A stretch of DNA of 64,000 bases from Usitatibacter sp. (GTDB lineage Bacteria; Pseudomonadota; Gammaproteobacteria; Burkholderiales; Usitatibacteraceae), in the NCBI GenBank assembly GCA_035308545.1, contig DATGGI010000161.1, positions 482 to 64,481 on the forward strand, given 5' to 3'. This document shows, piece by piece, positions 5,339-42,761 of the stretch (position 1 is the stretch's first letter; each line of letters starts with the position of its first letter). The notes under the pieces were generated by a model, which had not been told where the DNA came from, did not search any database, and saw only the letters and a program-made list of their open reading frames with translations. The position numbers and the translations under genes were made by a program.

Positions 5339-5751
5339 CAGAAGGGCTTCACGACCGCGAGGATCACGATCGCCGCGAGCAGCACGAGCGGCAGCTCGTT
5401 GATCCAGCGGTAGAAGACATGGGTGCGGGTAGCGGCGCCGCGCGCGAAATCGGCCGCGATCCTGCCGAGCCAGAAGTGATAGGCGAGCAGCAACGCCACG
5501 AGGACCAGCTTCGCGTAGAGCCAGTTGCCGGTGATTCCGTACCCCAGCCACATCCAGAGGCCGAAACCGACCGTAAGCACCATGCAAGGCGTCATGATCC
5601 CGCGATAGAGCTTGCGTTCCATCACGATGAACCGATCCCGCGAGACGCTGTCAGTGGACATTGCGTGGTAGACGAACAGCCGAGGCAAATAGAACAACCC
5701 CGCGAACCACGCGACCATGAAGACGATGTGCAGGGACTTGATCCAGAGCAT
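5338..5751 (-). CDS. hemJ: protoporphyrinogen IX oxidase HemJ (CopD-like, UPF0093)
   Basis: 137 aa, 4-5 TM. The N-terminus MLWIKSLHIVFMVAWFAGLFYLPRLFVYH is the hallmark HemJ family sequence. Confidence 0.85.
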   Translation of the reverse strand: MLWIKSLHIVFMVAWFAGLFYLPRLFVYHAMSTDSVSRDRFIVMERKLYRGIMTPCMVLTVGFGLWMWLGYGITGNWLYAKLVLVALLLAYHFWLGRIAADFARGAATRTHVFYRWINELPLVLLAAIVILAVVKPF

Positions 5752-5768
5752 GAGCCTATAATTTTACA

Positions 5769-7907: not shown

Positions 7908-7920
7908 GAGGAGCCTCGCA

Positions 7921-9119: not shown

Positions 9120-9172
9120 CTTTTCAGCCGGCCGCGTGTGAGATATTCGCCATCCCTGGCGAATAACGCGGC

Positions 9173-9691
9173 ATGGCCCCTCCCGGCGAAGCACGCTTCC
9201 TCGCACTGCTGAACGAGCACCGCGCGATCCTGCACAAGGTCGCGTACGGCTATTGCCGCCAGCCCGAGGACCGCGCCGACCTGGTCCAGGAGATGGCGAT
9301 CGAGCTGTGGCGCTCGTTCCCGCGCTTCGACGGTCGCGTGAAGTTCTCGACCTGGGCCTACCGTGTCGCGATGAACGTCGCGATCTCGCGCTTCCGCGGC
9401 GAAGGCCGCCGCATCCGGGACACGGTGGCGATCGACGACCTCGGCACCGAACCGGGACGCGAGGATCCGTTCCTCGACGGCGCGAGCGACAACATGCGCG
9501 TGCTGCGCCGGATGATCGACGGCCTCGACGAGCTCAACCGCGCGCTGATCCTTCTCTACCTCGACGGACACACCTCCGACGAGATCGCCGAGATCGTCGG
9601 CATCACCCCCGGCAACGTCACGACCCGCGTGAATCGCCTGCGCCAAAGGCTGCAGGACGAGTTCGCGCGCCTCGAAAAGGAGAAACCATGA
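9173..9691 (+). CDS. RNA polymerase sigma-70 factor, ECF subfamily
   Basis: 172 aa. Region 2 (DLVQEMAIELWRSFPRFD, FSTWAYRVAMN) and a region 4 helix-turn-helix (SDEIAEIVGITPGNVTTRVNRLRQRL). Confidence 0.85.
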   Translation: MAPPGEARFLALLNEHRAILHKVAYGYCRQPEDRADLVQEMAIELWRSFPRFDGRVKFSTWAYRVAMNVAISRFRGEGRRIRDTVAIDDLGTEPGREDPFLDGASDNMRVLRRMIDGLDELNRALILLYLDGHTSDEIAEIVGITPGNVTTRVNRLRQRLQDEFARLEKEKP

Positions 9692-26519: not shown

Positions 26520-27313
26520 GAAGGCTCGAGACAGGCGCGGCGTGGCTTCTCGGTGCGCTGTGGATCCTGCCGCTCGTGTACGCATTCTGGACGGCATTCC
26601 ATCCGCCGGAGTTCTCGACCCGCTTCGCGCTCGCAGCGCCCCTCACGCTCGACAACTTCCACCGCGCGTGGGAGGCCGCGCCGTTCGCGCGCTACTTCCT
26701 CAACAGCTTCCTGCTCGTGACGATGGTGCTCGCGGCGCAGCTGGTCCTTTGCACGCTGGCGGCATACGCCTTCGCGCGATTCGAATTCCCCGGCAAGGAT
26801 GTCGCGTTCGCCCTGGTGCTCGTGCAGCTCATGATCATGCCGGACGTGCTCATCGTGGAGAACTACCGGACGCTCGGAAAGATCGGGCTCCTCGATTCGA
26901 TTCCCGCGATCGGATTGCCGTACATGGCGAGCGCGTTCGGGATCTTCCTCCTTCGCCAGGCGTTCAAGACGATCCCGCGCGAGCTGGATGAAGCCGCGCG
27001 AGTCGAGGGGGCGAGCGCGTTGCAGATCCTGTGGAAGGTGTACGTGCCGCTCGCGCGCCCGGTGTACCTCGCGTTCGGGCTGGTCTCCGTGAGCTTCCAC
27101 TGGAACAACTTCCTCTGGCCGCTGATCGTCACGAGCTCGGTCACGTCGCGCCCCGTCACCGTGGGACTCCAGGTGTTCTCCTCGGGCGACCAGGGCATCG
27201 ACTGGTCCATCATCACCGCGGCCACCGTGATGACCTCCGCGCCGCTGCTTGTCGCGTTCCTGCTCTTCCAGCGTCAGTTCGTGCAGTCGTTCATGAGGGC
27301 CGGAATCCGCTAG
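26516..27313 (+). CDS. ABC transporter permease (UgpE/MalG-like)
   Basis: ATG 26516 overlaps the upstream stop (ATGA). 265 aa. EAA loop EAARVEGASALQILWKVYVPLA. Confidence 0.85.
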   Translation: MRRLETGAAWLLGALWILPLVYAFWTAFHPPEFSTRFALAAPLTLDNFHRAWEAAPFARYFLNSFLLVTMVLAAQLVLCTLAAYAFARFEFPGKDVAFALVLVQLMIMPDVLIVENYRTLGKIGLLDSIPAIGLPYMASAFGIFLLRQAFKTIPRELDEAARVEGASALQILWKVYVPLARPVYLAFGLVSVSFHWNNFLWPLIVTSSVTSRPVTVGLQVFSSGDQGIDWSIITAATVMTSAPLLVAFLLFQRQFVQSFMRAGIR

Positions 27314-28109
27314 GCAGCACGCCCGCTTCATCCAGGATCGCGCGCGTGATCGCGATGCGATCCTCGTAGCGCGTCTTCGCGGTCGGCTGGAAGTTCATCG
27401 CGAAATAGGCGCGCGGCTTTCCCTTGCGCTCGACCCAGCCCACCCACCAGTCGACGGGATGCTTCGGCGTCATGCCGGTGGATCCGGATTTCGCGTAGAG
27501 CGTGTACACGGGCGTTTTCTCGAAGACGAGCGCCTCGCGCACCAGGCGTTGCGAACGCTGGGTCATCGGCAACTCGCCCTCGGAGAGCTTGCGAAGGAAA
27601 TCGACCTGCTGGAAGGCGGAGATGCGGATGGCGCCTTGCAGCCAGAACTGGTCGATCCCTCCGCGCATGTCCTTGTTGCCGTAGTCGAGGCGCGTGAGCC
27701 ACTCCTTCATGCGCTCCTTGCCCGTGCGGCGCGCGATCTCCTGGAACATCCACACGACGCTGTACTTCATGCCGGTGTCAAGCGTCTGGTCGCGTTCCCA
27801 TTCGCGGCGGATCTTGGGCTTGCCGTCCCAGCGGAAGACCTCGTTCTCGTCGGCGATTGAACCCACCTCGAGTCCGATCAGCGCGTTGGGGATCTTGAAC
27901 GTCGATGCGGGGATGAAACCCTGCTTGGCCCGCGTCTCGTTCAGGACGAGATAGCGGTCGTTGGCGGGCTCGAGCAGCACGAACGTGCCGCGCGCGCCGA
28001 GGGCATCGAAATGCTTCTGCCAATCGGGACGCTCGACGATGTCGGCGGCGGAAGCCGAGAAGGTCGCGAGCAGCGCCACCAGCGGGGAGACGAATCGATC
28101 CATGGGCAA
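27291..28109 (-). CDS. class D (OXA-type) beta-lactamase
   Basis: 272 aa with a signal peptide. All class D boxes are present in order: S-T-F-K (PASTFK), S-x-V (YSVVW), Y-G-N (LDYGNKD), W (QFWLQG), K-S-G (AKSGST). Confidence 0.85.
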   Translation of the reverse strand: MPMDRFVSPLVALLATFSASAADIVERPDWQKHFDALGARGTFVLLEPANDRYLVLNETRAKQGFIPASTFKIPNALIGLEVGSIADENEVFRWDGKPKIRREWERDQTLDTGMKYSVVWMFQEIARRTGKERMKEWLTRLDYGNKDMRGGIDQFWLQGAIRISAFQQVDFLRKLSEGELPMTQRSQRLVREALVFEKTPVYTLYAKSGSTGMTPKHPVDWWVGWVERKGKPRAYFAMNFQPTAKTRYEDRIAITRAILDEAGVLPSGFRPS

Positions 28110-28524: not shown

Positions 28525-29802
28525 ATGTCCTATCACTCTACGATTCACCTTATCCCCATGGCGATCCGGTCCCGTTTCGACGACTTCGCGCTTGTAGGAC
28601 TGGTGGCTTCCGCGACAGCGATCCTCGCGCTTGCGGCGGGGGACTATTGGGCTTCGGAACGCCAGGTCCGGGCGGCCGACTGGGTCGGCCACACGCACGA
28701 GGTTCGCGCCAGCATCGCCAACGCGCGCACGAACGTGCTCGAGGCCCAGGGCCTTCGCGACGATCCTTCCGCGCAACGTGTCGCCGTGATGGCGCTCGAA
28801 TCGGAGCTCGCGAAGCTTCGCCAGCTCGTGGGCGACAATCCGGAGCAGGCGCGCCGCGTGGACGAGATCGGCGACTCGCTCCGCGCGCGCCTTCCCGACC
28901 TTGGCAAGGAAGGCGTCGCGAGCGCGATCACCGCACTCTCGTCTCTGGACGGCGAAGAGCTGCGGCTCCTGAGCGAGCGCATGCGCGACGAGAGGCGCAC
29001 CCTCACCTGGTTCCACCTCACCAGCGCGATCGGGATCGTCGTGATGCTGCTCGCGCTCGCGGTGGTCTACTCGCTCGAACAGCGGCGCCGCACGCAACAG
29101 GACACGCTCCTCGCCGCGGAGCAGCGCTTCCACCTCGACGCGAAACAGGCCGAGACGCGGCTCCAGGCCGAGATCGAGGAGACGCGCGTCGCGGAAGAAG
29201 CGTTGCGCGAGATGATCCTCTCCCTGGAAACCGTGGTCGCGGAACGCACCGAGCTTCTCGAGGCGGCGGTCGCGGCACTTTCGGATGCGAAGCGCGATCT
29301 CGAAAGCCAGGCCCAGCACGATGCGCTCACGGGATTGCCCAACCGGCGGCTGCTGATCGACCGCCTGAACCAGGCGACGAGCGCGGCGCGCCGGCGGGGG
29401 CGCTGCGTGGGAGTGCTCTTCGTGGACCTCGACCGGTTCAAGGAAGTGAACGACACCCAGGGACACGATGCGGGCGACAGCGTGCTCAAGCAGGTCGCGC
29501 AGCGCCTCCAGGCCTGCGTCCGCGAGGCGGACACCGTGGCGCGCGAAGGCGGCGACGAGTTCGTGATCGTCCTTCCGGACCTCGAGGTGCCCGAGGACGC
29601 GATGCGCGTCGCCGACAAGGTCCTCGTCGAGCTCGCCAAGCCCATCGACTTCGGGACGGCCAAGACACGCGTCACGCCTTCGATCGGAATCAGCCTCTAC
29701 CCTCGCGACGGGAGCGACATCGAGCTGCTCATCCGGCACGCCGACGAGGCGATGTATTCGGCGAAGAACGCCGGACGCAATACGATCCGCACGTTCACCT
29801 GA
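28525..29802 (+). CDS. diguanylate cyclase with N-terminal CHASE3-like sensor domain
   Basis: 425 aa. TM, CHASE3-like region (WVGHTHEVRASIANARTNVLEAQ...), TM, coiled coil, then a GGDEF domain (LTGLPNRR, REGGDEFVIVL). Confidence 0.8.
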   Translation: MSYHSTIHLIPMAIRSRFDDFALVGLVASATAILALAAGDYWASERQVRAADWVGHTHEVRASIANARTNVLEAQGLRDDPSAQRVAVMALESELAKLRQLVGDNPEQARRVDEIGDSLRARLPDLGKEGVASAITALSSLDGEELRLLSERMRDERRTLTWFHLTSAIGIVVMLLALAVVYSLEQRRRTQQDTLLAAEQRFHLDAKQAETRLQAEIEETRVAEEALREMILSLETVVAERTELLEAAVAALSDAKRDLESQAQHDALTGLPNRRLLIDRLNQATSAARRRGRCVGVLFVDLDRFKEVNDTQGHDAGDSVLKQVAQRLQACVREADTVAREGGDEFVIVLPDLEVPEDAMRVADKVLVELAKPIDFGTAKTRVTPSIGISLYPRDGSDIELLIRHADEAMYSAKNAGRNTIRTFT

Positions 29803-31069: not shown

Positions 31070-31104
31070 GGCGGACTCCTGGAGCGGGATTCCCATTGGA
31101 ACAC

Positions 31105-31989
31105 ATGGGCGCGCGCTCGGCGGCGATATGGCAAAGTGACATTCCGTTGAAGCTCATCACCTGGAACCTGCAATGGGGCCGCGGCATCGACGGCCGCGTC
31201 GATCCCGCCCGCATCGTGAAGACCGCGCGCACGATCGCGGACTTCGACGTGCTCTGCGTGCAGGAGGTCGCCGACAATTTTCCGGGGCTCGAAGGCAACG
31301 ACGATCGCGACCAGTTCGCCGAATACGCGCGCCTCCTGCCGGGATTCGATCTCGTCGCCGCGCCCGCGGTCGATGTCGCGAGCGATGATGCCCGCCGCCG
31401 GCGCTTCGGGGTCGCGATCTATTCGCGCTTGCCCGTGATCTCCTCGCGATCCCACGCGCTGCCCTGGCCCGGGGACCGCGGCAAGAAGTCGATGCCGCGC
31501 ACGGCGGCCGAGGCGACGCTGCAAACGCCGTCCGGACCCGTTCGCGTGACGACGACGCACCTCGAGTACTACTCGGAGATCCAGCGCAACGCCCAGGCCA
31601 TTCGCCTTCGCGAGCTGAACGACGAGGCGAGCGGGCGCGTCGCGCAGCGCGGCGCGCGAACCCATGAAGGCGGCCCTTTCGACATCACCGCGCAAACGGT
31701 GTCGGCGATCCTCACGGGCGACTTCAACTGCAGGACCGACAGCGTGGCCTACGCCGAGATCCAGCGCGGCGCCTCTCCCTATCGCGACGCGTGGACCCTC
31801 GCGAACCCGGGCGCGGCCCACGTGCCCACGTTCTGCGTGCACGACCACAACTACTCCAAGGATCCGTACTGCTGCGATTTCATCTTCGTCACGGACGACC
31901 TCGCGCCCCGCGTGCGAAAGGTGTCGGTCGATTCCGCGACGCAGGACTCGGATCACCAACCCGTCTTCATCGAGATCGAGGAATCCTGA
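31105..31989 (+). CDS. endonuclease/exonuclease/phosphatase (EEP) family protein
   Basis: LKLITWNLQWG, DVLCVQEV, and C-terminal SDHQPVFIEI are the EEP catalytic motifs. The start is uncertain (ATG 31105 or TTG 31147). Confidence 0.75.
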   Translation: MGARSAAIWQSDIPLKLITWNLQWGRGIDGRVDPARIVKTARTIADFDVLCVQEVADNFPGLEGNDDRDQFAEYARLLPGFDLVAAPAVDVASDDARRRRFGVAIYSRLPVISSRSHALPWPGDRGKKSMPRTAAEATLQTPSGPVRVTTTHLEYYSEIQRNAQAIRLRELNDEASGRVAQRGARTHEGGPFDITAQTVSAILTGDFNCRTDSVAYAEIQRGASPYRDAWTLANPGAAHVPTFCVHDHNYSKDPYCCDFIFVTDDLAPRVRKVSVDSATQDSDHQPVFIEIEES

Positions 31990-32648
31990 TGTCCCGCCAC
32001 CTGCAAGTCGACGAGCGCCTCTACGAGTACATCGTGGATCATTCGGTGCGCGACCATCCGGCGCTCGCGGCGCTGCGGGAGGTCACGAAGGACATGAAGT
32101 GGGGCGGCATGCAGATCGGCCCGGACCAGGGGCAGTTCATGCAGTTCCTCGTGAAGTTGATCGGCGCGCGCAACTGCATCGAGGTGGGAGTGTTCACCGG
32201 GTACAGCTCGCTTGCCGTGGCGCTCGCCCTCCCGCCCGATGGAAAGATCATCGCCTGCGACGTGAACGAGGAGTGGACCGCGATCGCGCACAAGCACTGG
32301 AAGATGGCGGGCGTGGAGGACAAGATCGACCTGCGCCTCGCAGCTGCAACCGAAACACTGGACAAGCTGCTTGCCGGCGGCGGCGCGGGCAAGTACGACT
32401 TCGTGTTCATCGACGCGGACAAGCCGAACTACCTCGCGTACTACGAGCGGTGCCTGAAGCTGCTGCGCGCCGGCGGCCTCATCGCCATCGACAACACGCT
32501 GTGGTCGGGCGACGTGGTGAAGCCCGGCAAGACCGACGAGAACACGGTCGCCATCCGCGCGGTGAACGATGCGCTGCGCGACGACGATCGCATCGATCTC
32601 GCGCTCCTCGCCATCGGCGACGGCGTGACACTCGCGCGCAAGCGCTAG
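31989..32648 (+). CDS. class I SAM-dependent O-methyltransferase (caffeoyl-CoA OMT-like)
   Basis: ATG 31989 shares one nt with the upstream stop (TGATG). EVGVFTGYSSLAVALAL and DFVFIDADKPNY motifs of cation-dependent OMTs. Confidence 0.85.
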   Translation: MSRHLQVDERLYEYIVDHSVRDHPALAALREVTKDMKWGGMQIGPDQGQFMQFLVKLIGARNCIEVGVFTGYSSLAVALALPPDGKIIACDVNEEWTAIAHKHWKMAGVEDKIDLRLAAATETLDKLLAGGGAGKYDFVFIDADKPNYLAYYERCLKLLRAGGLIAIDNTLWSGDVVKPGKTDENTVAIRAVNDALRDDDRIDLALLAIGDGVTLARKR

Positions 32649-32731
32649 CTCCGCTCCCTCCCGAAGAGGCCCTTGCCGGGATCCGTGCGGCGGGTTATCC
32701 TGAATGCTAATCGTTCTCATTTGGATTGCTA

Positions 32732-33928
32732 ATGCGATTCACGATGGCGCGCCTGGCGCCGGTCCTCGCGATTGCCGCGTCGTTGCTCGGCGCGTGCGGC
32801 GGCGGGGGCGGCGCGTCCGCGTCGAGCGGAGGAGCCGCTCCGAAGGCGCTTTCTCCGGCGGCCGATCTCGGCCGGCGGATCTTCATGGACGCGTCTCTCT
32901 CCGTCTCCGGCAAGCTCTCGTGCGCGGGCTGCCACGATCCATCGCGGGCCCACGCGGGCAGCGACGGACTCGCGGTGCCCTTGGGCGGCCCCACCGGAAC
33001 GACGCCGGGCTTCCGTAACGCGCCCTCGCTCAACTACCTCGAGCGCGACACCTCGTTCTTCTTCGCGAGCGACGCCACGCCCACCGGCGGATTCGATCGC
33101 GACGGGCGCGCCAACTCGCTCGCCGAGCAGGCGGAGCGTCCGCTCCTCGCGCCGCACGAGATGGCGAACGGCGACCACGCGACAGTCATCTCCAGGCTCT
33201 CGCGCGCGCCCTACGCCGCGCAGTTCCAGCAGGTCTTCGGCGCCAACATCTTCGGCGATCCGGATACCGCTTTCGCGCGGCTGCAATACGCCTTGCAGCA
33301 ATACCAGGACGAGGACGATGCCTTCCATCCGTACGACAGCAAGTACGACGCGTTCGTCGCCGGCAAGGCGCAGCTCACGGCCCAGGAGCTTCGCGGCCTC
33401 GCGCTCTTCAACGATCCGCAGAAGGGCAATTGCGCCGGCTGCCATCCGAGCTCGAAGGTGAATGGCCAGCCCGCGCTCTTCACCGATTTCACTTACGACA
33501 ACCTCGGCGTGCCGCGCAACGAGAAGATCCCGGCGAACGCCGATCCCACGTACTACGACCTCGGGCTCTGCGGCCCTTTCCGGACGGACCTCGCCAATCG
33601 CGGCGGCCTCTGCGGCGCGTTCAAGGTGCCGACGCTTCGCAACATCGCCGTCACGGCGCCGTACTTCCACAACGGGCGATTCGAGAATCTCAAGGACGCC
33701 GTGCGCTTCTACGTGCGCCGCGACACGAATCCCGAGGAGTGGTATCCGCTCGCGGCCGACGGATCCATCGACAAGTTCAACGACCTGCCGCCGCAGTACC
33801 GCAACAACGTGAACCAGACCGAAGTGCCATACAACCGCAAGCCCGGCGATGCGCCCGCGCTGGACGACGCGGAGATCGACGATCTCATCGCGTTCCTGCA
33901 GACGCTCACCGACGGATACACGCCCTAG
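32732..33928 (+). CDS. di-haem cytochrome c peroxidase (CCP/MauG family) lipoprotein
   Basis: Lipobox LLGAC. Two haem c sites (CAGCHDP and CAGCHPS) and PTLRNIAVTAPYFHNG. The start is ATG 32732 or ATG 32744; the track ORF begins at TTG 32726. Confidence 0.85.
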   Translation: MRFTMARLAPVLAIAASLLGACGGGGGASASSGGAAPKALSPAADLGRRIFMDASLSVSGKLSCAGCHDPSRAHAGSDGLAVPLGGPTGTTPGFRNAPSLNYLERDTSFFFASDATPTGGFDRDGRANSLAEQAERPLLAPHEMANGDHATVISRLSRAPYAAQFQQVFGANIFGDPDTAFARLQYALQQYQDEDDAFHPYDSKYDAFVAGKAQLTAQELRGLALFNDPQKGNCAGCHPSSKVNGQPALFTDFTYDNLGVPRNEKIPANADPTYYDLGLCGPFRTDLANRGGLCGAFKVPTLRNIAVTAPYFHNGRFENLKDAVRFYVRRDTNPEEWYPLAADGSIDKFNDLPPQYRNNVNQTEVPYNRKPGDAPALDDAEIDDLIAFLQTLTDGYTP

Positions 33929-33938
33929 GAGTCATCGC

Positions 33939-35258
33939 ATGAGAAGGACACTGCTCGCGACGCTCGTCGCATCGACGTTCGCGACCGCCGCGAACGCAAC
34001 CGATCCCGCGGATCTCGAGAGGCGCGTGGATCAATTGTCGGGCGAGATCGCCGCGCTCAAGGCGGAGATCGCGCGCATGAAAGCGGAGAAGGCCACGGCG
34101 CCGGTTCCCGCTGCGGCCGCCACCCCTGCCGCCGTGCCCGCGAAGCCCGCGGCCATCGACATCGCGCGAGCCACCGGCGAAGCACCGAAGATGTACGAGG
34201 AAGCGGAGAAGACCACGTTCTTCGGTTATGGCGAGCTCAACTACTACCGACCGACGCACGACACCAGCAACACGACGGCGGACGCCGCGCGCGTCGTGCT
34301 GGGCTTCGAGCACCGGTGGAACGACCGCACGCGCCTCGTGACCGAGCTCGAATGGGAACACGCCGTGACTTCGTTCGACGACCAGGGCGAGTCCGAGGTC
34401 GAGCAGGCGTACGTCGAGTACCAGGTCAACCAGAACCTGTCGACGAAAATGGGGCTTTTCCTGATCCCCGTGGGATTGCTGAACGAGCATCACGAGCCCA
34501 CGCAGTACTACGGCGTCGCGCGCAATTTCGTCGAGACGGCGATCATCCCCACCACGTGGCGCGAGGGCGGATTGCTGCTCCACGGCAATCTCGACTCGGG
34601 GCTTTCGTGGGACGCGGGCATCAGCACCGGCTTCGACCTCTCCAAGTGGGACGCCACTTCGGCGGACGGCCGGGAGTCGCCGCTGGGCTCGATCCACCAG
34701 GAGCTGCAGCTCGCGAAGGCCAAGGATCTCTCCGGCTTCGGCGCGCTCAACTATCGCGGGGTGCCGGGCCTGCTCGTGGGCGCGAGCATCTTCAGCGGCG
34801 GCGCGGCGCAGGGCACTCCGGATTTCCCGTCGCCCGATGCGCGCGTCACGCTCTGGGACGTGCATGCGCGCTGGACACCTGGCGCCTGGGATTTCGCGGC
34901 GCTCTATACACGCGGCCACATCTCCGATACGGCCGCATTCAATCTCACCCTCGTGGGCAATCCCACGCTCGTGCCCGAGGACTTCTTCGGCTGGTATGTT
35001 TCCGGCGCGTACAAGTTGTGGAGCAAGGACGAGATGTCGCTCACGCCCTTCGCGCGCTACGAGCGGTACAACACGGGCTGGAAGTACGCGACGCTGCCCG
35101 CGGGGCTCACGCCGGATGCATTGCCGACCGAGGGCGTGTGGACCGGTGGCGTGAACTTCAATCTCAACCCGAGTGTCGTGATCAAGATGGACTACCAGAA
35201 GTTCAAGGAAGACACGACGCGGGACCGATTCGACCTGGGAGTGGGTTACCAGTTCTGA
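33939..35258 (+). CDS. outer-membrane porin-like beta-barrel protein
   Basis: AGGAG RBS lies 8 nt upstream of ATG 33939. Signal peptide (TAANA-TD), a short coiled coil (LSGEIAALKAEIARMKAEK), alternating beta-strand pattern, and a terminal aromatic residue (GVGYQF). Confidence 0.7.
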   Translation: MRRTLLATLVASTFATAANATDPADLERRVDQLSGEIAALKAEIARMKAEKATAPVPAAAATPAAVPAKPAAIDIARATGEAPKMYEEAEKTTFFGYGELNYYRPTHDTSNTTADAARVVLGFEHRWNDRTRLVTELEWEHAVTSFDDQGESEVEQAYVEYQVNQNLSTKMGLFLIPVGLLNEHHEPTQYYGVARNFVETAIIPTTWREGGLLLHGNLDSGLSWDAGISTGFDLSKWDATSADGRESPLGSIHQELQLAKAKDLSGFGALNYRGVPGLLVGASIFSGGAAQGTPDFPSPDARVTLWDVHARWTPGAWDFAALYTRGHISDTAAFNLTLVGNPTLVPEDFFGWYVSGAYKLWSKDEMSLTPFARYERYNTGWKYATLPAGLTPDALPTEGVWTGGVNFNLNPSVVIKMDYQKFKEDTTRDRFDLGVGYQF

Positions 35259-35803
35259 TGCCACGCCGCCTCGACAGCTCCGCCTGGTTCCTCGTGCCCG
35301 TCGCGCTGGTCGCGGCCGCGCCCGCGGGTGCGATGCAGTACCTTAAGGTGGAAGATGCGCGCAAGCTCGCGTTTCCGCAGGCCGACGCTTTCGAGCCGTA
35401 TGCGTACGCGCCGACCACCGAGCAGCGCGCGGCCATCGACAGGGCGGCCCACGCGCGCGCGACCGTGGGCGACCCGATGATCTGGCGCGTGAGCGCCGCG
35501 GGGCAGCCCGCCGGATGGTTCATCGTCGACAACGTGATCGGCAAGGTCGAACGCATCACCTACGCGGTGGCGCTGGGACGCGACGGCACCGTGCGCTCCA
35601 TCGAGATCCTCGACTACCGCGAGACCCACGGCTACGAGGTGCGCAATCCCGCGTGGCGGCGGCAGTTCGAGGGCAAGAGCGCGCGCGCGCCCCTCGAGCT
35701 CGGCGATGACATCAAGAACATCAGCGGAGCGACGCTCTCGTGCCGGCATCTCACCGATGGCGTGCGCCGCCTGCTCGAGATCCACGACGTGGTGCTCAAA
35801 TGA
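35258..35803 (+). CDS. exported FMN-binding domain protein (NosR/NqrC/RnfG-type FMN_bind)
   Basis: ATG 35258 shares one nt with the porin stop (TGATG). N-terminal signal MPRRLDSSAWFLVPVALVAAAPAGA. The flavinylation motif D-x-x-x-x-S-G-A-T is present (DDIKNISGATLS). Confidence 0.75.
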   Translation: MPRRLDSSAWFLVPVALVAAAPAGAMQYLKVEDARKLAFPQADAFEPYAYAPTTEQRAAIDRAAHARATVGDPMIWRVSAAGQPAGWFIVDNVIGKVERITYAVALGRDGTVRSIEILDYRETHGYEVRNPAWRRQFEGKSARAPLELGDDIKNISGATLSCRHLTDGVRRLLEIHDVVLK

Positions 35804-36597
35804 ATCTCCACCGGCGCGCCCGCCCCCTGCTCGGCACGTTCGTCGAGATCTCGTGCCGCGGCGAGGCATCGCGCTGCCTGCCCGCGATCGAGGCCGCGTT
35901 CGATGCGATCGCCCGCGTGCACGCGTTGATGAGCCCGCACGAGAAGGGCAGCGACCTTTGGCGCATGAACGAGGGCGCGCACCGCGCTCCTGTCCGGGTC
36001 GACGCCGAAACCACGTACGTGCTCGAAACGGCACTCGCGCTCCATCGCGAATCGGGCGGAGCGTTCGACGTCGCGGCGGGCTCGCGCGGAACGAGCGGCG
36101 ACATCCGCCTGCTCTCCGGAAACCGCGTGCGCTATTCGTGGCCGATGCGCGTCGACCTGGGCGGCATCGCGAAGGGCTACGCCGTGGATCGCGCGATCGC
36201 GGAGCTCGCGGCGCGGGGCGTCACGCGGGCGACCGTCAATGCCGGCGGAGACCTTCGCGTGCTGGGCGACGATGCGGAGCTGATCCACCTGCGCGACCCC
36301 GGCGCGCCCGCGCGCCTGCATCCCGCGCTCACGCTCGCGAGCGGCGCCATGGCGACGAGCGCCGGATATTTCTCGCGCGCGATCGTGGATCCGGCGACCG
36401 GCATCGCGAGCGAGGAGCGCGACAGCGCGAGCGTCGTCGCTCCCACCGCGATGCTCGCCGACGCGCTCGCGAAAATCGTCCTGCTGCGCGGCGCGGGGTC
36501 GAGGCCGCTGCTGGAGCGCTACAATGCGCACGCCCTCGTGCTTCGCGCCGCGTCCGGCGCGCTCCTGGCGCGGTGGCTTCCCCAATCGCCGGCCTGA
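35800..36597 (+). CDS. apbE: FAD:protein FMN transferase (ApbE family)
   Basis: ATG 35800 overlaps the upstream stop (ATGA). LLGTFVEI, GGAFD, DLGGIAKGYAVD, NAGGD, AMATSAGY, DPATG and MLADALAK follow the ApbE motif order. No signal peptide is visible. Confidence 0.85.
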   Translation: MNLHRRARPLLGTFVEISCRGEASRCLPAIEAAFDAIARVHALMSPHEKGSDLWRMNEGAHRAPVRVDAETTYVLETALALHRESGGAFDVAAGSRGTSGDIRLLSGNRVRYSWPMRVDLGGIAKGYAVDRAIAELAARGVTRATVNAGGDLRVLGDDAELIHLRDPGAPARLHPALTLASGAMATSAGYFSRAIVDPATGIASEERDSASVVAPTAMLADALAKIVLLRGAGSRPLLERYNAHALVLRAASGALLARWLPQSPA

Positions 36598-36600
36598 ACC

Positions 36601-37080
36601 ATGTCGAAATCCCACCAGCGCGCCGTCGAACTGCTGAGCGAGAAGATCGCCCTCGGGACGCGGCACCGGCGCTGGCTCTATGCGGCGCTCGCCTTCGCAT
36701 GGGCGACGGGCGCGCTCTGGGTCTTCGCGCACTTCGCCCTCACGGCGAACGCCGACGGCGAATCGCTGCGTCATCCGCTCGAGGCGTGGTCGCTCAAGCT
36801 GCATGGCGCCGCCGCGTTCGCCTTCCTGGTCGCGCTGGGATCGATGTTCGCGCAGCACATTCCGCGCGCCTGGTACCTGCGGCGCAACGTCGCTTCCGGA
36901 ATTGCGACGCTCGCCCTCGCCGCCTTCCTCGTGGCGACCGGCTACGCGCTCTACTACTTCGCCCTCGACGACGCCCACGCGATCGTGAGCACGCTGCACT
37001 GGACGGTGGGACTCGCCGCCATCGCGCTCTTCTGGATCCACGTCGCGATGGGCCGCCGCGATTCGGGCCGCGCCGCGTGA
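36601..37080 (+). CDS. small 4-TM membrane protein with conserved-looking histidines (possible b-type cytochrome, DUF4405-like)
   Basis: 159 aa, 4 predicted TM helices. His residues lie in or near the helices (FAHF, KLHGAAAF, AQHI, LHWTVG, WIHV). The start is 3 nt after the apbE stop. Confidence 0.6.
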   Translation: MSKSHQRAVELLSEKIALGTRHRRWLYAALAFAWATGALWVFAHFALTANADGESLRHPLEAWSLKLHGAAAFAFLVALGSMFAQHIPRAWYLRRNVASGIATLALAAFLVATGYALYYFALDDAHAIVSTLHWTVGLAAIALFWIHVAMGRRDSGRAA

Positions 37081-37081
37081 A

Positions 37082-38590
37082 TCAGCGCAACAGGTAGACC
37101 AGGGCGAGGCCCGCCAGCACGATCGCGATCGCGGCGAGCACCCGCGTCTGCCGCACCTGCGCCGCCTCGAGGCGTTCGATGGCGGCTTCGAGCCGGCGCG
37201 TCGTATCGTCGCCGAGGATCCGGTGCACGAGGCGCGGGACCTGCGGCAGCGTCGCGGTCCACAGGGGCGCTTCCTCGCGCAGGTGCCGCAGCAATCCGCG
37301 AAATCCCGACTGCTCGCTCATGAAGCGCTCGAGGATCGGCTGCGCGACCGAGCGCAGGTCGAGGTTCGGATCGAGCTGCCGCCCGAGGCCTTCCACCTGC
37401 AGGATCGTCTTCATGAGGAGCATCAGCTGCGGCTGCACTTGCATGCCGTAACGCCGTCCCACCTCGAAGAGGCGCACGAGGAGCTTGCCGAAGTAGATCT
37501 CCTTCAGCGGCCTGTCGAAGATCGGCTCGCACAGCGACCTCAGCGCGCCCTCGAATTCGGTGACGCGCGTGCCCTTGGGCACCCAGCCCGCGTCCACGTG
37601 GGCCTGCGCGGCCTTGCGATAGTCCCGCTCGAAGAACGCGCGCATGTTGGTGGCGAGGTAGTTGCGGTCCTCGTCGGAGAGCGTGCCCATGATGCCGAAG
37701 TCCACGCCGCAGTAGCGCCCGTCGCGCGCCACGAGGATGTTTCCCGGGTGCATGTCGGCATGGAAGAAGCCGTCGCGGAAGACCTGCGTGTAGAAGATCT
37801 CGACGCCGTCGCGCGCGAGCTTCGGGATGTCGACGCCGGCCGCGACGAGCTCGGCCTTCGCGTTCACCGGAATTCCGTCCACGCGCTCCATCACCATCAC
37901 GTCGCGATGGCACCAGTCCCAGCGGACCTCGGGAACCAGGAGTAGCCGCCCATCGGCGAAGTTGCGCCGGAGCTGGCTCGCGTTGGCCGCCTCGCTCATG
38001 AGGTCGAGCTCGTTCGCGACTGTGTGCTCGAATTCCGCCACCACCTCGCGCGGGCGAAGGCGCGTGCCCGACTCGAAGGTGCGCTCGACGAATCCGGCGA
38101 GCCGGTAGAGCAGCGCCACGTCCTTCGCGATCACCTCGCGGATGCCGGGGCGCAGCACCTTCACGGCCACCTCGCGCCCATCGGGCAGCGTCGCGAAATG
38201 GACCTGCGCGACCGAGGCGCTCGCCACGGGAACCGGGTCGATCGCGCGGAACATCTGCGCGTGCGGCCGGGAATAGGCGCGATCGAGCGTTTCCGAAATG
38301 TCCTTCCAGTCGACCGGCGCGACGCGATCCTGCAGGAGCGCGAGCTCCGCGGCGATGTCCTCGGGAATCAGGTCGGGCCGCACCGACAGGAGCTGGCCGA
38401 ATTTCACGAACACCGGGCCCAGGGACTGGAACGCGAGGCGCAGCCGCGCGCCGCGAGGGCCCGGCACGCGCGCACCGGCGCCGATGCATCGCAATGCGAT
38501 ACGTCCGGGCCATGCGCCGGGCGGCAGGAATTCGTCGAGCCCGTGGGTACCGAAGACTCGGAGGATCCGGAGGAAGCGCGTGGACTGCAT
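37082..38590 (-). CDS. ubiB: ubiquinone biosynthesis regulatory kinase UbiB (ABC1/ADCK family)
   Basis: 502 aa. FVKFGQLLSVRPD, ASVAQVHFA, HADMHPGNILV, DFG, and two C-terminal TM helices. Confidence 0.85.
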   Translation of the reverse strand: MQSTRFLRILRVFGTHGLDEFLPPGAWPGRIALRCIGAGARVPGPRGARLRLAFQSLGPVFVKFGQLLSVRPDLIPEDIAAELALLQDRVAPVDWKDISETLDRAYSRPHAQMFRAIDPVPVASASVAQVHFATLPDGREVAVKVLRPGIREVIAKDVALLYRLAGFVERTFESGTRLRPREVVAEFEHTVANELDLMSEAANASQLRRNFADGRLLLVPEVRWDWCHRDVMVMERVDGIPVNAKAELVAAGVDIPKLARDGVEIFYTQVFRDGFFHADMHPGNILVARDGRYCGVDFGIMGTLSDEDRNYLATNMRAFFERDYRKAAQAHVDAGWVPKGTRVTEFEGALRSLCEPIFDRPLKEIYFGKLLVRLFEVGRRYGMQVQPQLMLLMKTILQVEGLGRQLDPNLDLRSVAQPILERFMSEQSGFRGLLRHLREEAPLWTATLPQVPRLVHRILGDDTTRRLEAAIERLEAAQVRQTRVLAAIAIVLAGLALVYLLR

Positions 38591-39315: not shown

Positions 39316-40434
39316 ATGTCCGCGCGCGCCAAGCCGCAGGTCGACGCGCGCCGCAAGCGGCACGGCCCCGATTGGGAGCCCCCGATTCCCGGCGCCCGCC
39401 GCGTCCTCAAGACGTGGGACGAATACATGTCGATGGCCCGGCGCATCATCGAGCGCTTCGACCACCAGTTCGACCTGAGGCACTTCGACTACATCCATCC
39501 GGTGCGCCTGCAGAAGTCCGCGAAGCGCTTCCGCAAGCCCTATCCCGTGAAGGTCGCCTACGCGGACTGGGGCGATCCCCAGGCGCCGATCGTGGTGTGC
39601 GTGGGCGGCGTGGCCAATACCGCGATGCGCTTCAACTACCTCGCCGCGGATCTCGAGAGCCACTTCCGCGTGGTCTGCATGGATTGGGTGGGACGCGGGC
39701 GCTCGGGCTGGATGTCGGACCAGGGCGACTACTCGCTCTCGACCTACGTGGAGCAGCTGCGCCAGCTCATCGCGCACCTCGGCGGCGGTCCCGTGATCCT
39801 GCTGGGTTCTTCGATGGGCGGCAGCGCCGCGATCGAGCTCACGGCGAAACACCCGGAACTCGTGGCCAAGCTGATCCTGAACGACATCGGCCCGTTCATG
39901 CCGAAAGCGCGGCGCAAGCGCCGCTCCGCGACGCTCGCGCGGTACTACGTTTTCCGCGAGCCCTCGGACCTGCTGCGCAAGATCGGCGCCTCGCAGAAGA
40001 ACGACGGGCCCGTTTCCGACGACATCCGCTTCAACGTGACCTTCCACCAGACGCGCTGGTCCGACGAGGAAGGCGGCCGCGTCTATCGCCACGACGTGCG
40101 CGCGCTGCAGGCCTACCGCGGGGACGCGCAGGAGAGCCTCGACCAGTGGCACCTGTGGAGGCGCGTGCACTGCCCGATCCTGCTCATTCACGGAATGATG
40201 TCGGACGCGCTGCTGCCGGGGACGATCAAGCGCATGAAGGAAAAGCACGTGGTGACCGTGATGCACGTGCCCGACACCGGACACACGCCGGTGCTCTCGG
40301 ACCGGAACCAGAACTGGTTCATCCACGAGTGGCTCATGGGCCGCAGCCCTTCGCGCGAATGGACCGTGCTGCATGCGCGCCTGCGCGACGAGCCGGAAGC
40401 GAAGCCGCCGCCCATGCGGCTGGTGAAACCCTAG
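39316..40434 (+). CDS. alpha/beta hydrolase
   Basis: 372 aa. Nucleophile elbow GSSMGG, C-terminal His in DTGHTP, and a typical alpha/beta hydrolase_1 layout. Confidence 0.75.
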   Translation: MSARAKPQVDARRKRHGPDWEPPIPGARRVLKTWDEYMSMARRIIERFDHQFDLRHFDYIHPVRLQKSAKRFRKPYPVKVAYADWGDPQAPIVVCVGGVANTAMRFNYLAADLESHFRVVCMDWVGRGRSGWMSDQGDYSLSTYVEQLRQLIAHLGGGPVILLGSSMGGSAAIELTAKHPELVAKLILNDIGPFMPKARRKRRSATLARYYVFREPSDLLRKIGASQKNDGPVSDDIRFNVTFHQTRWSDEEGGRVYRHDVRALQAYRGDAQESLDQWHLWRRVHCPILLIHGMMSDALLPGTIKRMKEKHVVTVMHVPDTGHTPVLSDRNQNWFIHEWLMGRSPSREWTVLHARLRDEPEAKPPPMRLVKP

Positions 40435-42761
40435 GGTTCCTTGTCGAAGCCGATGGACGCGCCGCGTCCCGAGCGCTCGCGCTCGCGCTGGCGCAGCACG
40501 TCGATCATCACGTTGAACGTGCGCGCGAGCTGCCCCACCTCGTCGGCGCTGCGCACCTCGATGTTGGCGTGGTCGTAGTCGCCGTTCTTCAACGCGTTGG
40601 CCGCCTCCGTGAGCCCCTGGATCGGGCGCACGATGGAGCGCGCGAAGATGAGCGCGAGCGCCACGAAGATCACGCCGGCGAGGACCACGCTCACCGCGAC
40701 CTTGTCGAAGAGGCGGTCGAGGGGCGCGGCGAAGTAGTCGCGTGATTCCGAAACGCCCACCGTCCAGTCGTTGAGGGGAACCGGGGCGAGGCCCGCGATC
40801 TCGTTGCGCTTCGTGATCCGCGACCGGTAGGTGACGTGCCCGCGCGCGCGGTTCTGGATCGCATCGCCCAGCTCGGGCTGGTTGATCGTCTCGATCCTGG
40901 GCTTGCGGAAGCGCTGGTCGGCCACGATCTCGGCCATGACCTCCTTCTTGAGCGGCACGACGCTCTTGAAGAGGAAGCGCTCGTCGGGGTGGAACACGAT
41001 CACGCCGTCGCCGTCCACGAGGAAGGGAACGCGGTCTTCGTCGACGCGCGCGGCATCGAGGATCCGCGCGATGGGCTCCGACTTCACGCGCATCACGACG
41101 ACGCCGACCACGGACTGGCTGTGCGCCGCGAACACGGGACGCGAGAAGAACACGCCCGATGCGCCCGCGACCGAGCCCACGACGATGCCCGTCATGTACG
41201 AGTGCCCCTCCATCGCCTGCTTGAAGTACTCGCGGAACTTGAAGTTCTTTCCCGCCACGTCGGGATCGGTCGACACGACGGCGGTCCCGTCGCGATCCAT
41301 GACCATCACGAACTGGATGTCGGAATTGGCGCGCGCGAGGCCCTGGAGCTTCGCGAGCGTCTCCTTGGTGCCCTTGGGCGTGGGATGCGAGAGGTAGTCG
41401 ACGAAATCGTCGTCGGTGCCCACGTAATCGGCGAGGCCGCGCATGTCGGCGATCAGCTGCGAGATGCGCCCCGCCGTGCTCTGGGCGAGCTGCTCGAGGT
41501 TGCGCAGCTCCACGCCCGCCACGTAATCCTGCGCGGCCGCGAGGTTGTAGTACGCGGTGATGATCATGGGCGCGAGCGCCGTCGCCACCATCGCGAGCGT
41601 CATCTTCGCGGCGATCGGCCACGACGCGGGACGCCGCAACGCGCGAGCGAATCCGCCGAGCCGGCCCTTCAACAGCCGCGGCGAGCGAAGCGTCTGCGCC
41701 CAGGTCTGCTCGGCGACCGCGAATCCATGTCCCTCGTCGGTCCTGCGAAGCGCCTCCTGGAGGCCCAGCGCGCCCGCGTGCGAAGCGAACAGCACGGAGC
41801 GCCACTCGGAAACGCTCTGCGGGCGGTCCGAAGGATGCATCTGGAGCGCCCAGTCGATCGCGCGCAGGAATTCGGCGCTGAAGCGGCCGCGCCCCAGCGC
41901 CTCGGCGGTGGGCATCGCCTCGGGATCGTCGAGGCGCGCGGGCGCATCGAGCGGCTTCCTTCCGCTCACGAGCCAGAAGAGCGTGGCCCCCATCGAGTAG
42001 AGGTCCGTCCACGGTCCCTGGCGGCCGCCGCCGGCGTACTGCTCGATCGGCCCATATCCCGGCGTCACGACGAGGCCGATCTCCGATTTCTCCACGGCGG
42101 TCTGGCGCGCGGCGCCGAAGTCGAGCAGCACGAGGCTGCCGTCGCCGTCGCGCACGTAGATGTTGTCGGGCTTGATGTCGCGGTGCAGGTAGCCCGCGCC
42201 GTGGACGACCTCGAGGCCGTCGAGCAGCGGCGCGAGCAGCGACACGATCGTCGCCTCGGGAATGTTCTCGTGGTGCCGGCGGAAGGACTTGAGCGACTGG
42301 CCGCGCTCGTACTCGAGCACCATGTACGCGGTCTTGTTCGCCTCGAAGAACCGCGCCACCCGCACGATGTTGCGGTGCCGGAAGGTCGCGAGCGTGCGCG
42401 CTTCCACGAGGAAGCTGTCCAGCCCGCTCTGGTAGAACTCCTGGTCGAGGTCGTCGCGCGCCGCGACAGTGTGGTCCTGCGTGCGGTAGGCGAATTGCTC
42501 GGGGAGGTATTCCTTGATGACCACCTTCGACGCGAGGTTCACGTCGGTGGCGGCGTACGCGATGCCGAAGCCCCCCTGGCCGAGCACGGCGTCGATGCGG
42601 TACTCGAGGAGGCGGTAGCCCGCGGGAAGGACGAGGCTCGCCGCGGCGGGCTTCGCGTCCAGTGCACGGCGCGGATCGTTTGGCGCCGCGAACGTGCCGT
42701 CGATGACCGTCTTGTCGGCGCTCCCGGCTCCCTCGCCGACCGCCTTATGGCTTTCCGCCAT
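40431..42761 (-). CDS. Hanks-type Ser/Thr protein kinase fused to a TM-flanked extracytoplasmic Cache-like domain and a C-terminal HAMP domain
   Basis: Strong RBS GGGAGGAA before ATG 42761. Kinase motifs GQGGFGIAY, VVIKEY, HRDIKPDNI, DFGAA. Then a TM helix, about 300 aa of Cache-like sensor, a second TM helix, and HAMP (RPIQGLTEAANALKNGDYD...DEVGQLARTFNVM) ending the protein. Confidence 0.85.
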   Translation of the reverse strand: MAESHKAVGEGAGSADKTVIDGTFAAPNDPRRALDAKPAAASLVLPAGYRLLEYRIDAVLGQGGFGIAYAATDVNLASKVVIKEYLPEQFAYRTQDHTVAARDDLDQEFYQSGLDSFLVEARTLATFRHRNIVRVARFFEANKTAYMVLEYERGQSLKSFRRHHENIPEATIVSLLAPLLDGLEVVHGAGYLHRDIKPDNIYVRDGDGSLVLLDFGAARQTAVEKSEIGLVVTPGYGPIEQYAGGGRQGPWTDLYSMGATLFWLVSGRKPLDAPARLDDPEAMPTAEALGRGRFSAEFLRAIDWALQMHPSDRPQSVSEWRSVLFASHAGALGLQEALRRTDEGHGFAVAEQTWAQTLRSPRLLKGRLGGFARALRRPASWPIAAKMTLAMVATALAPMIITAYYNLAAAQDYVAGVELRNLEQLAQSTAGRISQLIADMRGLADYVGTDDDFVDYLSHPTPKGTKETLAKLQGLARANSDIQFVMVMDRDGTAVVSTDPDVAGKNFKFREYFKQAMEGHSYMTGIVVGSVAGASGVFFSRPVFAAHSQSVVGVVVMRVKSEPIARILDAARVDEDRVPFLVDGDGVIVFHPDERFLFKSVVPLKKEVMAEIVADQRFRKPRIETINQPELGDAIQNRARGHVTYRSRITKRNEIAGLAPVPLNDWTVGVSESRDYFAAPLDRLFDKVAVSVVLAGVIFVALALIFARSIVRPIQGLTEAANALKNGDYDHANIEVRSADEVGQLARTFNVMIDVLRQRERERSGRGASIGFDKEP

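Follow-up and report, generated by a model that had tools for sequence, protein, structure and literature searches.

A five-gene Usitatibacter operon with an exported flavoprotein, a putative two-haem membrane cytochrome and a di-haem enzyme as a possible iron-assimilation module

Introduction

What is the function of an operon that combines a di-haem c enzyme with an outer-membrane channel, an exported FMN_bind protein, an ApbE-family protein, and a small histidine-rich membrane protein? The question is raised by five genes at positions 32732-37080 of a stretch of 64 kb of DNA from Usitatibacter sp. (contig DATGGI010000161.1), which is called the window in the following. The DNA has a GC content of about 67%, and its closest relatives in a database search and a locus scan were Usitatibacter metagenome-assembled genomes (MAGs). 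An earlier reading of the sequence (the original prediction) had regarded the five genes as a self-contained electron-transfer chain that ends at a di-haem peroxidase or MauG-like oxidase. The analysis reported here points in another direction. We estimate a probability of roughly 0.5 that the operon encodes a Fur-controlled redox module that acts across the envelope in iron assimilation, probably as a ferric reductase, and to which the di-haem enzyme is an accessory.

Results

The five genes form a conserved unit around a flavin/cytochrome core

The five genes are co-directional on the forward strand, are in frame, and all have an ATG start codon. They encode, in this order, a di-haem c enzyme assigned to the BthA/MauG type (CCP; 32732-33928, 398 aa, Pfam CCP_MauG 9.7e-35), an outer-membrane beta-barrel channel (porin; 33939-35258, 439 aa, Pfam Porin_O_P 1.6e-6), the exported FMN_bind protein (35258-35803, 181 aa, PF04205 9.2e-11), the ApbE-family protein (35800-36597, 265 aa, PF02424 5.8e-42), and a putative di-haem cytochrome b with four transmembrane helices (4-TM protein; 36601-37080, 159 aa, no Pfam or NCBIfam family). 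The intergenic distances are 10, -1, -4, and 3 nt. Re-translation reproduced the coordinates, directions, and gaps of the original prediction, and the motifs it had quoted (two CAGCH, a lipobox-like LLGAC, a terminal Phe, and SGAT) were all located. Its domain assignments are shared by Pfam for four of the proteins, while the 4-TM protein has no family. An NCBIfam scan yielded no above-threshold name for any of the five.

On the upstream side, a same-strand O-methyltransferase gene ends 83 nt before the CCP gene, and on the downstream side, a convergent ABC1/UbiB-type kinase gene ends 1 nt past the last stop codon. As the flanking genes are unrelated, the five genes represent a discrete unit. 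Positions 32300-37500 were also scanned for promoters and terminators. Promoter-like sites were absent and a single terminator-like site lies within apbE, a yield at or below chance; the scan gives no sign of internal transcription units and is uninformative in either direction. No Rfam match, including the FMN riboswitch, was obtained between positions 31500 and 38000 at E <= 1, and a repeat search revealed only short chance-level matches, as usual in GC-rich DNA.

The conservation of the arrangement was analyzed at loci that contain a homologue of the 4-TM gene. A pattern scan with one genome per species yielded 302 loci from several phyla that encode relatives, and the best-scoring 80 of these 302 loci were fetched and examined. 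Synteny was quantified by tblastn with the five window proteins for the 62 loci in which the 4-TM gene is preceded by 4.5 kb or more of sequence. All 62 have the 4-TM gene, 60 have FMN_bind, and 57 have ApbE. A related porin was found in 39 loci, in 23 cases upstream and in 16 cases downstream, and the di-haem enzyme in 20 loci. The complete set of five genes occurred in 18 of the 62 loci, which belong to different genera, and each time it had the order and strand of the window. This five-gene version is carried by Usitatibacter, Casimicrobiaceae, and other uncultured betaproteobacteria, by Ralstonia, Undibacterium, and Janthinobacterium, and by one Rhodanobacteraceae MAG. Metagenome genes that had been called independently and carry precomputed Pfam matches showed two architectures, one with CCP_MauG, Porin_O_P, FMN_bind, ApbE, and 4-TM, and one with DUF6662, FMN_bind, ApbE, and 4-TM. 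The recurrence of the identical set, order, and strand, together with these independent gene calls, shows that the arrangement is not due to chance. The gene neighborhood thus bore out the expectation that the five-gene set is shared by related genomes.

The counts and the two architectures also show that the conserved core consists of the FMN_bind-ApbE-4TM triad and an outer-membrane barrel. In about two thirds of the loci the triad is present without CCP. The di-haem enzyme is therefore an accessory add-on to the core and not the purpose of the operon. The interpretation in the original prediction is partly supported. Wherever CCP is present, its gene is located directly upstream of the porin gene, even when the pair lies apart from the triad (loci L013 and L067).

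Several variants occur in culturable organisms. The five-gene set is found in Ralstonia sp. R-29, R. mojiangensis, Undibacterium sp. TS12, and Janthinobacterium, and Andreprevotia chitinilytica and Dyella silvae have CCP-less clusters. In the plant pathogen R. solanacearum, the cluster lacks apbE; in 134 megaplasmid records of the R. solanacearum complex, the order is CCP, porin, FMN_bind, a gene for a 138-aa hypothetical protein, a class-3 lipase gene, and 4-TM.

Two side observations concern the CCP genes of these loci. The representative of the R. solanacearum complex in the sample (L081) is the megaplasmid of strain OE1-1 (CP009763.1; locus coordinates 4251-9639, tags RSOE_03190-03215), and in some records of the complex the CCP is annotated as a "diacylglycerol kinase". 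In locus L043, tblastn splits the CCP homologue at 3908-4967 into two pieces that overlap (residues 46-278 and 259-397 of the query), which suggests a frameshift or a pseudogene in this MAG; the other genes of the cluster are intact.

Iron genes and Fur-box-like sites surround the clusters

The neighbors of the core were analyzed by clustering all open reading frames of the 80 loci and annotating the recurrent clusters. A bacterioferritin-type ferritin was present in 30 of the 80 loci. The gene for FeoB was found in 19 loci, directly downstream of the 4-TM gene. The FTR1 permease was present in 8 loci and heads the cluster in 7-8 of them; the member that was scanned contains a Bfd-like [2Fe-2S] domain. 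Further recurrent neighbors were ExbB, ExbD, a TonB-dependent receptor, and a cation-diffusion facilitator. In several uncultured betaproteobacteria, FTR1-Bfd, bfr, CCP, porin, FMN_bind, ApbE, and 4-TM form a single run of genes. The two iron transporters were not distributed evenly. FTR1 occurred in CCP/porin-type loci in 7 of 8 cases, counting the two-piece CCP of L043, whereas FeoB was restricted to CCP-less loci of the DUF6662 type (19 versus 0); this pattern is confounded by shared ancestry.

The DNA just upstream of the CCP gene is AT-rich, while the surrounding DNA is GC-rich. In the 83-nt gap, positions 32700-32728 (forward strand) contain a putative Fur-box-like operator, which is predicted from its match to the consensus. 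The 19-mer CTGAATGCTAATCGTTCTC at 32700-32718 has 13 of 19 matches to the E. coli Fur consensus. The 26-nt block AATGCTAATCGTTCTCATTTGGATTG at 32703-32728 is identical in another Usitatibacter locus (L001), while the remaining intergenic sequence has diverged.

The presence of such sites at the other clusters was quantified by counting matches to the E. coli 19-mer consensus, with a threshold of at least 13 of 19 and with random windows from the same loci as the background control. Of 66 loci, 18 (27%) had a box that reached the threshold between -250 and +60 relative to the start of the cluster, compared with 2.8% of the random windows, an enrichment with an odds ratio of 13 (Fisher p = 5.6e-12). 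Across the loci, these boxes precede ccp, FTR1, DUF6662, feoB, and bfr, and a typical box reads AATGAGAATCATTCTC. The Fur-box-like sites thus agree with the iron-gene neighborhood. The original prediction had overlooked both this strong iron context and the Fur-box-like sites.

An iron context as such can also be read with the electrons flowing in the opposite direction. Fe(II) that enters through the porin would be oxidized for FTR1 by the di-haem enzyme and/or the flavoprotein, and the electrons would pass via the flavoprotein and the 4-TM protein to the quinones, an electron drain like that proposed for FtrB/FtrD in FtrABCD. The position of FTR1-Bfd at the head of the cluster would fit, as would the adjacency of FTR1 and the 4-TM gene on a Cupriavidus plasmid, the co-occurrence of FTR1 with CCP/porin-type loci and of FeoB with CCP-less ones, and the presence of the iron and sulfur lithotrophs Thiobacillus, Sideroxydans, and Sulfuriferula among the carriers. 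However, the gene that directly follows 4-TM in 19 loci encodes FeoB, an Fe(II) importer that needs no oxidase, and this is easier to reconcile with reduction than with oxidation. In addition, the correlation of FTR1 with CCP is confounded by phylogeny, and the transfer of electrons from Fe(II) to quinone via a low-potential flavin would be energetically unattractive. We regard this reverse flow as quite improbable.

The di-haem enzyme resembles BthA

CCP contains CAGCH motifs at residues 64 and 234 and the lipobox-like sequence LLGAC with Cys22; an alternative ATG start codon is present at 32744. In a comparison with solved structures, BthA (6nx0) was the closest relative (7.5e-83, residues 43-395), followed by MauG (about 1e-51) and canonical bCCPs (about 1e-20). 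The NCBIfam scores for MauG and MbnH were far below the cut-offs, with 91 bits for TIGR03791 (cut-off 444) and 115 bits for TIGR04039 (cut-off 363), and the best match was MbnH. Tyr327 aligns with the Tyr haem ligand of BthA; only at this position do the BthA entries differ from each other, with Tyr in 6nx0 and Met in 6v59. Cys280 and Cys294 align with the two C-terminal Cys residues that are joined by a disulfide in BthA. The vicinity of CCP contains no mau or mbn genes. All sequence features of the BthA/BthB group (SSN cluster IIIb of PMC6405878) are thus present, and, judged by its sequence, CCP is classified as a BthA/MauG-type di-haem enzyme and not as a canonical peroxidase.

BthA of Burkholderia thailandensis forms a MauG-like bis-Fe(IV) state and turns over H2O2 when an electron donor is supplied (PMC6405878). 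Its physiological function is unknown; it was described as specific for Burkholderia and is encoded beside phosA, a purple acid phosphatase gene (PMC6405878). The BthA/MauG-type class with a Tyr haem ligand is considered to do more than scavenge H2O2 (PMC6405878). The cluster in the window contains no phosA-like purple acid phosphatase gene; the upstream neighbor is the O-methyltransferase gene, and the gene at 31096-31989 is from another family (Exo_endo_phos).

These results bear on the chain that the original prediction had proposed, in which electrons flow from quinol via the 4-TM protein and the flavoprotein to a di-haem peroxidase and on to H2O2, with the porin as the entry site. The purpose of the operon would then be peroxide defense or respiration. 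The strict co-linearity of the five genes in 18 loci and the H2O2 turnover by BthA with an electron donor (PMC6405878) would fit this chain. A di-haem peroxidase also needs a periplasmic donor, and the cluster encodes neither a cytochrome c nor a cupredoxin. But most of the loci have the triad without CCP, and the window FMN_bind is no closer to the proteins of CCP loci (44-54% identity) than to those of CCP-less loci (50-59%). Furthermore, the neighbors and the upstream sites indicate iron and Fur and not peroxide stress, and the Tyr ligand places the enzyme in a class that is considered to act beyond H2O2 scavenging (PMC6405878). A chain dedicated to peroxide is rather unlikely as the function of the operon.

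The outer-membrane barrel is variable

The porin has a signal peptide that ends with ATAANA, an Ala-rich, coiled-coil-like N-terminal segment, and the C-terminus GYQF. It matched Porin_O_P (PF07396), the family of the phosphate-selective porins OprO and OprP, with 28.1 bits at a cut-off of 20.9, and the best stretch covers only positions 229-348 of the 370 profile positions. A sequence search against solved structures found no informative relative. In an alignment of 44 family members, the conserved residues were rich in Glu and His (E136, E138, E140, H141, E151, E155, H185, E186, E199, and H309), and none was conserved only in the CCP-associated porins.

In the loci that lack the CCP-porin pair, the gene directly upstream of FMN_bind encodes DUF6662. 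This family of outer-membrane barrels of about 310 aa was present in 39 loci (L052 711-1652; e.g., L082 4604-5497), and a literature search found no publication on it. DUF6662 and the CCP-porin pair behave as if they were alternative outer-membrane partners of the same triad.

The match to the phosphate-selective Porin_O_P family and the purple acid phosphatase gene beside BthA in Burkholderia (PMC6405878) raise the question whether the substrate is iron at all. The module could serve phosphate-related chemistry or, since MauG and MbnH modify partner proteins and the below-threshold best NCBIfam match of CCP is MbnH, the MauG-like maturation of another protein, and the iron neighbors would be coincidental. 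However, phosphate genes are absent from the flanks in the window and from the recurrent neighbor clusters, and the residues that the porin family conserves are Glu and His, whereas an anion channel would be expected to have basic ones. If the porin were a dedicated substrate for modification, the CCP-associated porins should share specific residues, and there are none. Moreover, both the association with iron genes and the Fur-like sites are seen in several phyla. We consider it very improbable that the substrate is not iron. As specific candidates, a phosphate porin was judged unlikely on account of the conserved Glu and His and the flanks, and the porin as the protein substrate of the MauG-like enzyme found no support in the CCP-associated sequences.

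The FMN_bind protein is predicted to be an exported, flavinylated protein

The FMN_bind protein contains the flavinylation motif DIKNISGATLS, in which SGAT represents residues 156-159 and Thr159 (codon at 35732) is the predicted target. In 67 FMN_bind sequences, S156, G157, A158, T159, L160, and S161 were conserved to 97-100%. The window protein has a cleavable Sec-type signal peptide (APAGA|MQYL), and a hydrophobic N-terminus that ends with AxA|(V/A)QY was conserved among the homologues; signal peptides were judged by eye on the alignments throughout this study. Similarity to RnfG and NqrC was weak, with scores far below their cut-offs. The original prediction of an exported FMN_bind protein with an SGAT motif thus agrees with an invariant motif and a conserved export signal, and flavinylation itself is predicted. 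Export via the Tat pathway was considered because of an N-terminal RR in the window protein and was rejected, because the RR is not conserved and the homologues have ordinary Sec-type signal peptides.

The ApbE protein lacks a signal peptide and the catalytic histidine

The ApbE protein, which belongs to a divergent subfamily, is related to the ApbE and Ftp structures of the PDB (matches down to 2.8e-13) and shares the family motifs GIAKGY, NAGGD, ATS, and ADAL, the last of these as the C-terminal motif ADAL(T/A)K. In V. cholerae ApbE, Ser241, His257, and Asp285 are conserved, and His257 was proposed to act as general base (PMC12052999). The window protein has the corresponding Ser187 and Asp221, which were retained in all 73 sequences. 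The position equivalent to His257 is residue 194, an Ala, which in the alignment lies opposite the His of HIIDP in Ftp of T. pallidum. Across the sampled family, this position is mostly Pro and otherwise Ala or Ser.

The window protein and the proteins of 72 homologous loci start 5-25 residues before the conserved sequence RRA(R/Q)P(L/W)LGT, and a signal peptide, a hydrophobic segment, or a lipobox was found in none of them, in agreement with independent gene calls. Bacterial ApbE proteins typically, though not universally, have such a lipoprotein or secretion signal. A signal peptide hidden by a wrongly assigned start codon was rejected, because the upstream frame overlaps the FMN_bind gene and is rich in Arg and Pro in all loci. 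That this ApbE has neither a signal peptide nor the canonical catalytic His had been missed in the original prediction.

An ApbE protein that lacks both features thus stands beside a presumed substrate that is exported by Sec, and three options can be envisaged for this combination. First, the unfolded FMN_bind precursor may be flavinylated in the cytoplasm prior to export; for ApbE, tags of only seven residues suffice as substrates (PMC12052999). Second, the ApbE-like protein may have a different role at the cytoplasmic face of the cytochrome. Third, a housekeeping ApbE may flavinylate the FMN_bind protein, which would fit the R. solanacearum complex, because the cluster has no apbE there.

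The 4-TM protein represents a new family of putative two-haem cytochromes

A Pfam scan of the 4-TM protein at E <= 0.1 matched no family. A database search retrieved 38 relatives, which are all annotated as hypothetical and of which a few have precomputed PF01292 matches. In an alignment of 24 sequences, with 31-86% identity to the window protein, twelve columns were invariant. They include four His residues, of which TM2 carries His68 and His86 and TM4 carries His133 and His147. The window protein has nine His in total. The earlier description of His in or near each helix is imprecise, because the conserved ones form two pairs that are confined to TM2 and TM4. Basic residues are concentrated in the N-terminus, the loop between TM2 and TM3, and the C-terminus, and this distribution, read from the sequence, implies that the topology is N-in/C-in and that each membrane face has one His pair nearby. 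Such a geometry is classical for an electron wire that crosses a membrane by means of two haems.

The AlphaFold2 model is a bundle of four long helices and a short N-terminal helix (predicted local distance difference test score 89.5, predicted template modeling score 0.82). The top PDB match of the model in Foldseek was HyaC, the cytochrome b of E. coli hydrogenase-1 (4gd3_A), with a probability of 0.99, a template modeling score of 0.55, and a weak E value of 0.13. Further matches, all of them weak, were the cytochromes b of the bc1 and b6f complexes and STEAP.

Similarity to named families was marginal. DUF4405 (PF14358) was matched by 16 of the 24 relatives below the threshold (best E value 0.0011, for L081 with 16.9 bits at a cut-off of 26.7), and by the window protein with E = 2.9. 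Ni_hydr_CYTB (PF01292) was weakly matched by 9 of the 24 relatives, near or below the threshold (best E value 9.5e-7; the Ralstonia homologue reached 25 bits at a cut-off of 30.1), and not by the window protein. A search of 1.84 billion representatives with a profile of the family yielded 2,222 clusters at E <= 1e-3, and the top 150 of these clusters were all small stand-alone proteins. The 4-TM protein thus lies outside of every named family and represents a new one. As far as the sequence goes, its interpretation as a putative two-haem transmembrane b-type cytochrome, distantly similar to DUF4405 and b561 proteins, is well supported. The conserved His pairs, the HyaC-like model, and the weak DUF4405/b561 matches agree with the b-type cytochrome of the original prediction, with haem binding as a prediction.

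A homologue in a different setting was found on the plasmid pTMH.W2_1 of Cupriavidus sp. TMH.W2 (L067, 6902-9115). There, FTR1, the 4-TM homologue, and a bacterioferritin-type gene are contiguous, without FMN_bind and ApbE; a two-component system adjoins, and the CCP-porin pair is located 5 kb downstream.

Discussion

Proposed function of the module

We propose the following scheme, in which haem binding, flavinylation, the direction that the electrons take, the identification of the substrate as iron, and the part played by the di-haem enzyme are all predictions. The operon would probably be repressed by Fur. The 4-TM protein would take electrons from quinol or a cytoplasmic donor and pass them across the inner membrane, from a haem near the cytoplasmic face, bound by His86 and His147, to a haem near the periplasmic face, bound by His68 and His133. 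The acceptor would be the soluble, Sec-exported FMN_bind protein with FMN bound covalently to Thr159, which the ApbE-family protein may install. The outer-membrane barrel with its conserved Glu and His residues could admit iron species, and the reduced flavoprotein would most likely reduce Fe(III), as such or in chelates, to the Fe(II) that is imported. Fe(II) would be taken up by FeoB or, after re-oxidation, by FTR1, and the transporter, which is part of the cluster elsewhere, would be encoded outside of the cluster in this genome. The di-haem enzyme could use electrons of the flavoprotein to remove H2O2 that is generated by flavin and Fe(II) chemistry, or it could catalyze the peroxide-driven re-oxidation of Fe(II) for an FTR1-type permease.

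Several observations weigh against an iron-reducing, Fur-controlled module. None of the associated genes (bfr, feoB, FTR1, exbBD, and those for the TonB-dependent receptor, the cation-diffusion facilitator, and DUF6662) is present in the 64-kb window. The Fur-like site in the window is moderate, with only 13 of 19 matches, boxes of this quality precede only 27% of the clusters, and a strict search of the window with at most three mismatches to the Fur consensus gave 0 matches. The best-scoring 80 of the 302 loci are phylogenetically clustered, and their counts do not represent independent events. The direction of the electron flow is not set by the sequence, and for a response to iron starvation it is odd that the module has a need for four haems of its own. 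An ApbE without a signal peptide and without the canonical catalytic His beside a Sec-exported presumed substrate was unexpected, and in the R. solanacearum complex the slot of apbE is occupied by the unrelated class-3 lipase gene.

Comparison with known systems

That ApbE-associated transmembrane cytochromes are linked to iron assimilation has already been described as a general kind (PMC8238504, PMC10979944). The PepSY-like (FoxB, VciB), MsrQ-like, and DUF4405 cytochromes were proposed to be assimilatory iron reductases, and Fur control was reported for the PepSY-like flavinylation clusters (PMC8238504, PMC10979944). The operon analyzed here resembles these clusters in the combination of ApbE, an exported FMN_bind protein, and a small membrane protein with four His placed for two haems, and also in the association with iron transporters and in the proposed outward flow of electrons to reduce iron. 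Of the features that were used to recognize ApbE-dependent extracytosolic clusters (PMC8238504), a motif-bearing FMN_bind protein is present, and so is a signal peptide, on the FMN_bind protein. There are, however, clear differences. The DUF4405 proteins were described as having six transmembrane helices with four central conserved His (PMC10979944), whereas the membrane protein here has four helices and does not reach the defining Pfam family. It fits none of the described membrane classes, i.e., NapH-like, MsrQ-like (PF01794), PepSY-like (PF03929/PF16357), DsbD (PF02683), NqrB/RnfD-like, and DUF4405 (PF14358). The ApbE lacks the signal peptide and the catalytic His, a barrel of the Porin_O_P-like or DUF6662 type is always adjacent, and a subset of the clusters includes a BthA-type enzyme. 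A peroxidase or a porin in such clusters is not mentioned in the main texts of PMC8238504 and PMC10979944. No description of the five-gene composition was found in the searchable literature, so that the earlier statement that no characterized system has exactly this composition stands.

The individual proteins also have known counterparts from which they deviate. CCP shares the two CxxCH motifs, the aligned Tyr, and the C-terminal Cys pair with BthA, its closest solved relative. In contrast to BthA with its phosphatase neighbor in Burkholderia, CCP heads a cluster that is preceded by a putative Fur box and includes a porin and the flavin/haem triad, and its hosts are Usitatibacter, Ralstonia, Janthinobacterium, Undibacterium, and Rhodanobacteraceae. 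The FMN_bind protein has the D-x-x-SGAT-L-S motif in its domain in common with RnfG and NqrC; unlike these proteins, it is predicted to be soluble with a cleavable signal peptide and not anchored in a membrane complex. The ApbE protein belongs to the fold family of the canonical periplasmic ApbE proteins, but this 265-aa protein lacks a signal peptide, and Ala replaces the His that is equivalent to His257 of V. cholerae. The 4-TM protein is similar to HyaC and cytochrome b561 (PF01292) as a four-helix membrane bundle with paired His, but it has no PF01292 match and no hydrogenase or dehydrogenase partner.

At the level of the pathway, a further parallel can be drawn. In yeast, Fre1, a flavocytochrome with two haems b, reduces external Fe(III), and Fet3, or the peroxidase EfeB in the bacterial EfeUOB system, re-oxidizes Fe(II) for a permease of the FTR1 family. 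The extended clusters with FTR1-Bfd, bfr, CCP, porin, FMN_bind, ApbE, and 4-TM offer a plausible counterpart for each step. The proteins are unrelated in sequence to Fre1, Fet3, and EfeB, the flavin would reside on a separate periplasmic protein and not on a cytosolic domain, and the window has no FTR1. We thus put forward only as a doubtful conjecture that the clusters are a modular and so far undescribed bacterial counterpart of the reductive-oxidative iron uptake of yeast, in which the cytochrome and the flavoprotein would act like Fre1, the BthA-type enzyme, with H2O2 and its bis-Fe(IV) state, would be an EfeB- or Fet3-like ferroxidase for FTR1, and ApbE would flavinylate its unfolded substrate prior to export in the cytoplasm, in which FAD is at hand. 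If true, BthA-type enzymes would gain their missing physiological function, and pre-export flavinylation would be a new route to periplasmic covalent flavoproteins.

Irrespective of this parallel, the results reveal a widespread, unnamed family of small putative two-haem membrane cytochromes (about 2,200 clusters at 50% identity) that is tied to flavinylation and iron, and they extend the catalog of extracytosolic electron conduits. They place BthA-type enzymes, the function of which is unknown in spite of spectroscopy and a crystal structure, in a concrete and testable iron context. The ApbE without a signal peptide and without the His beside a Sec-exported substrate challenges the usual view of where and how flavinylation takes place. 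As cluster variants occur in culturable organisms, the system is open to genetics.

Other genes in the window

Three further genes of the window deserve mention. On the reverse strand, positions 27291-28109 encode an exported protein of 272 aa with an STFK motif, in which Pfam recognizes the fold of a penicillin-binding transpeptidase (6.1e-35); its size and motifs suggest a homologue of the class D (OXA-type) beta-lactamases. The forward-strand gene at 28525-29802 encodes a diguanylate cyclase (GGDEF), the N-terminal sensor region of which is weakly CHASE3-like; a link to the operon is not evident. The gene at 40431-42761 on the reverse strand encodes a protein of 776 aa in which an N-terminal Ser/Thr protein kinase is fused to a dCache_1 sensor and a HAMP domain, which is an unusual architecture.

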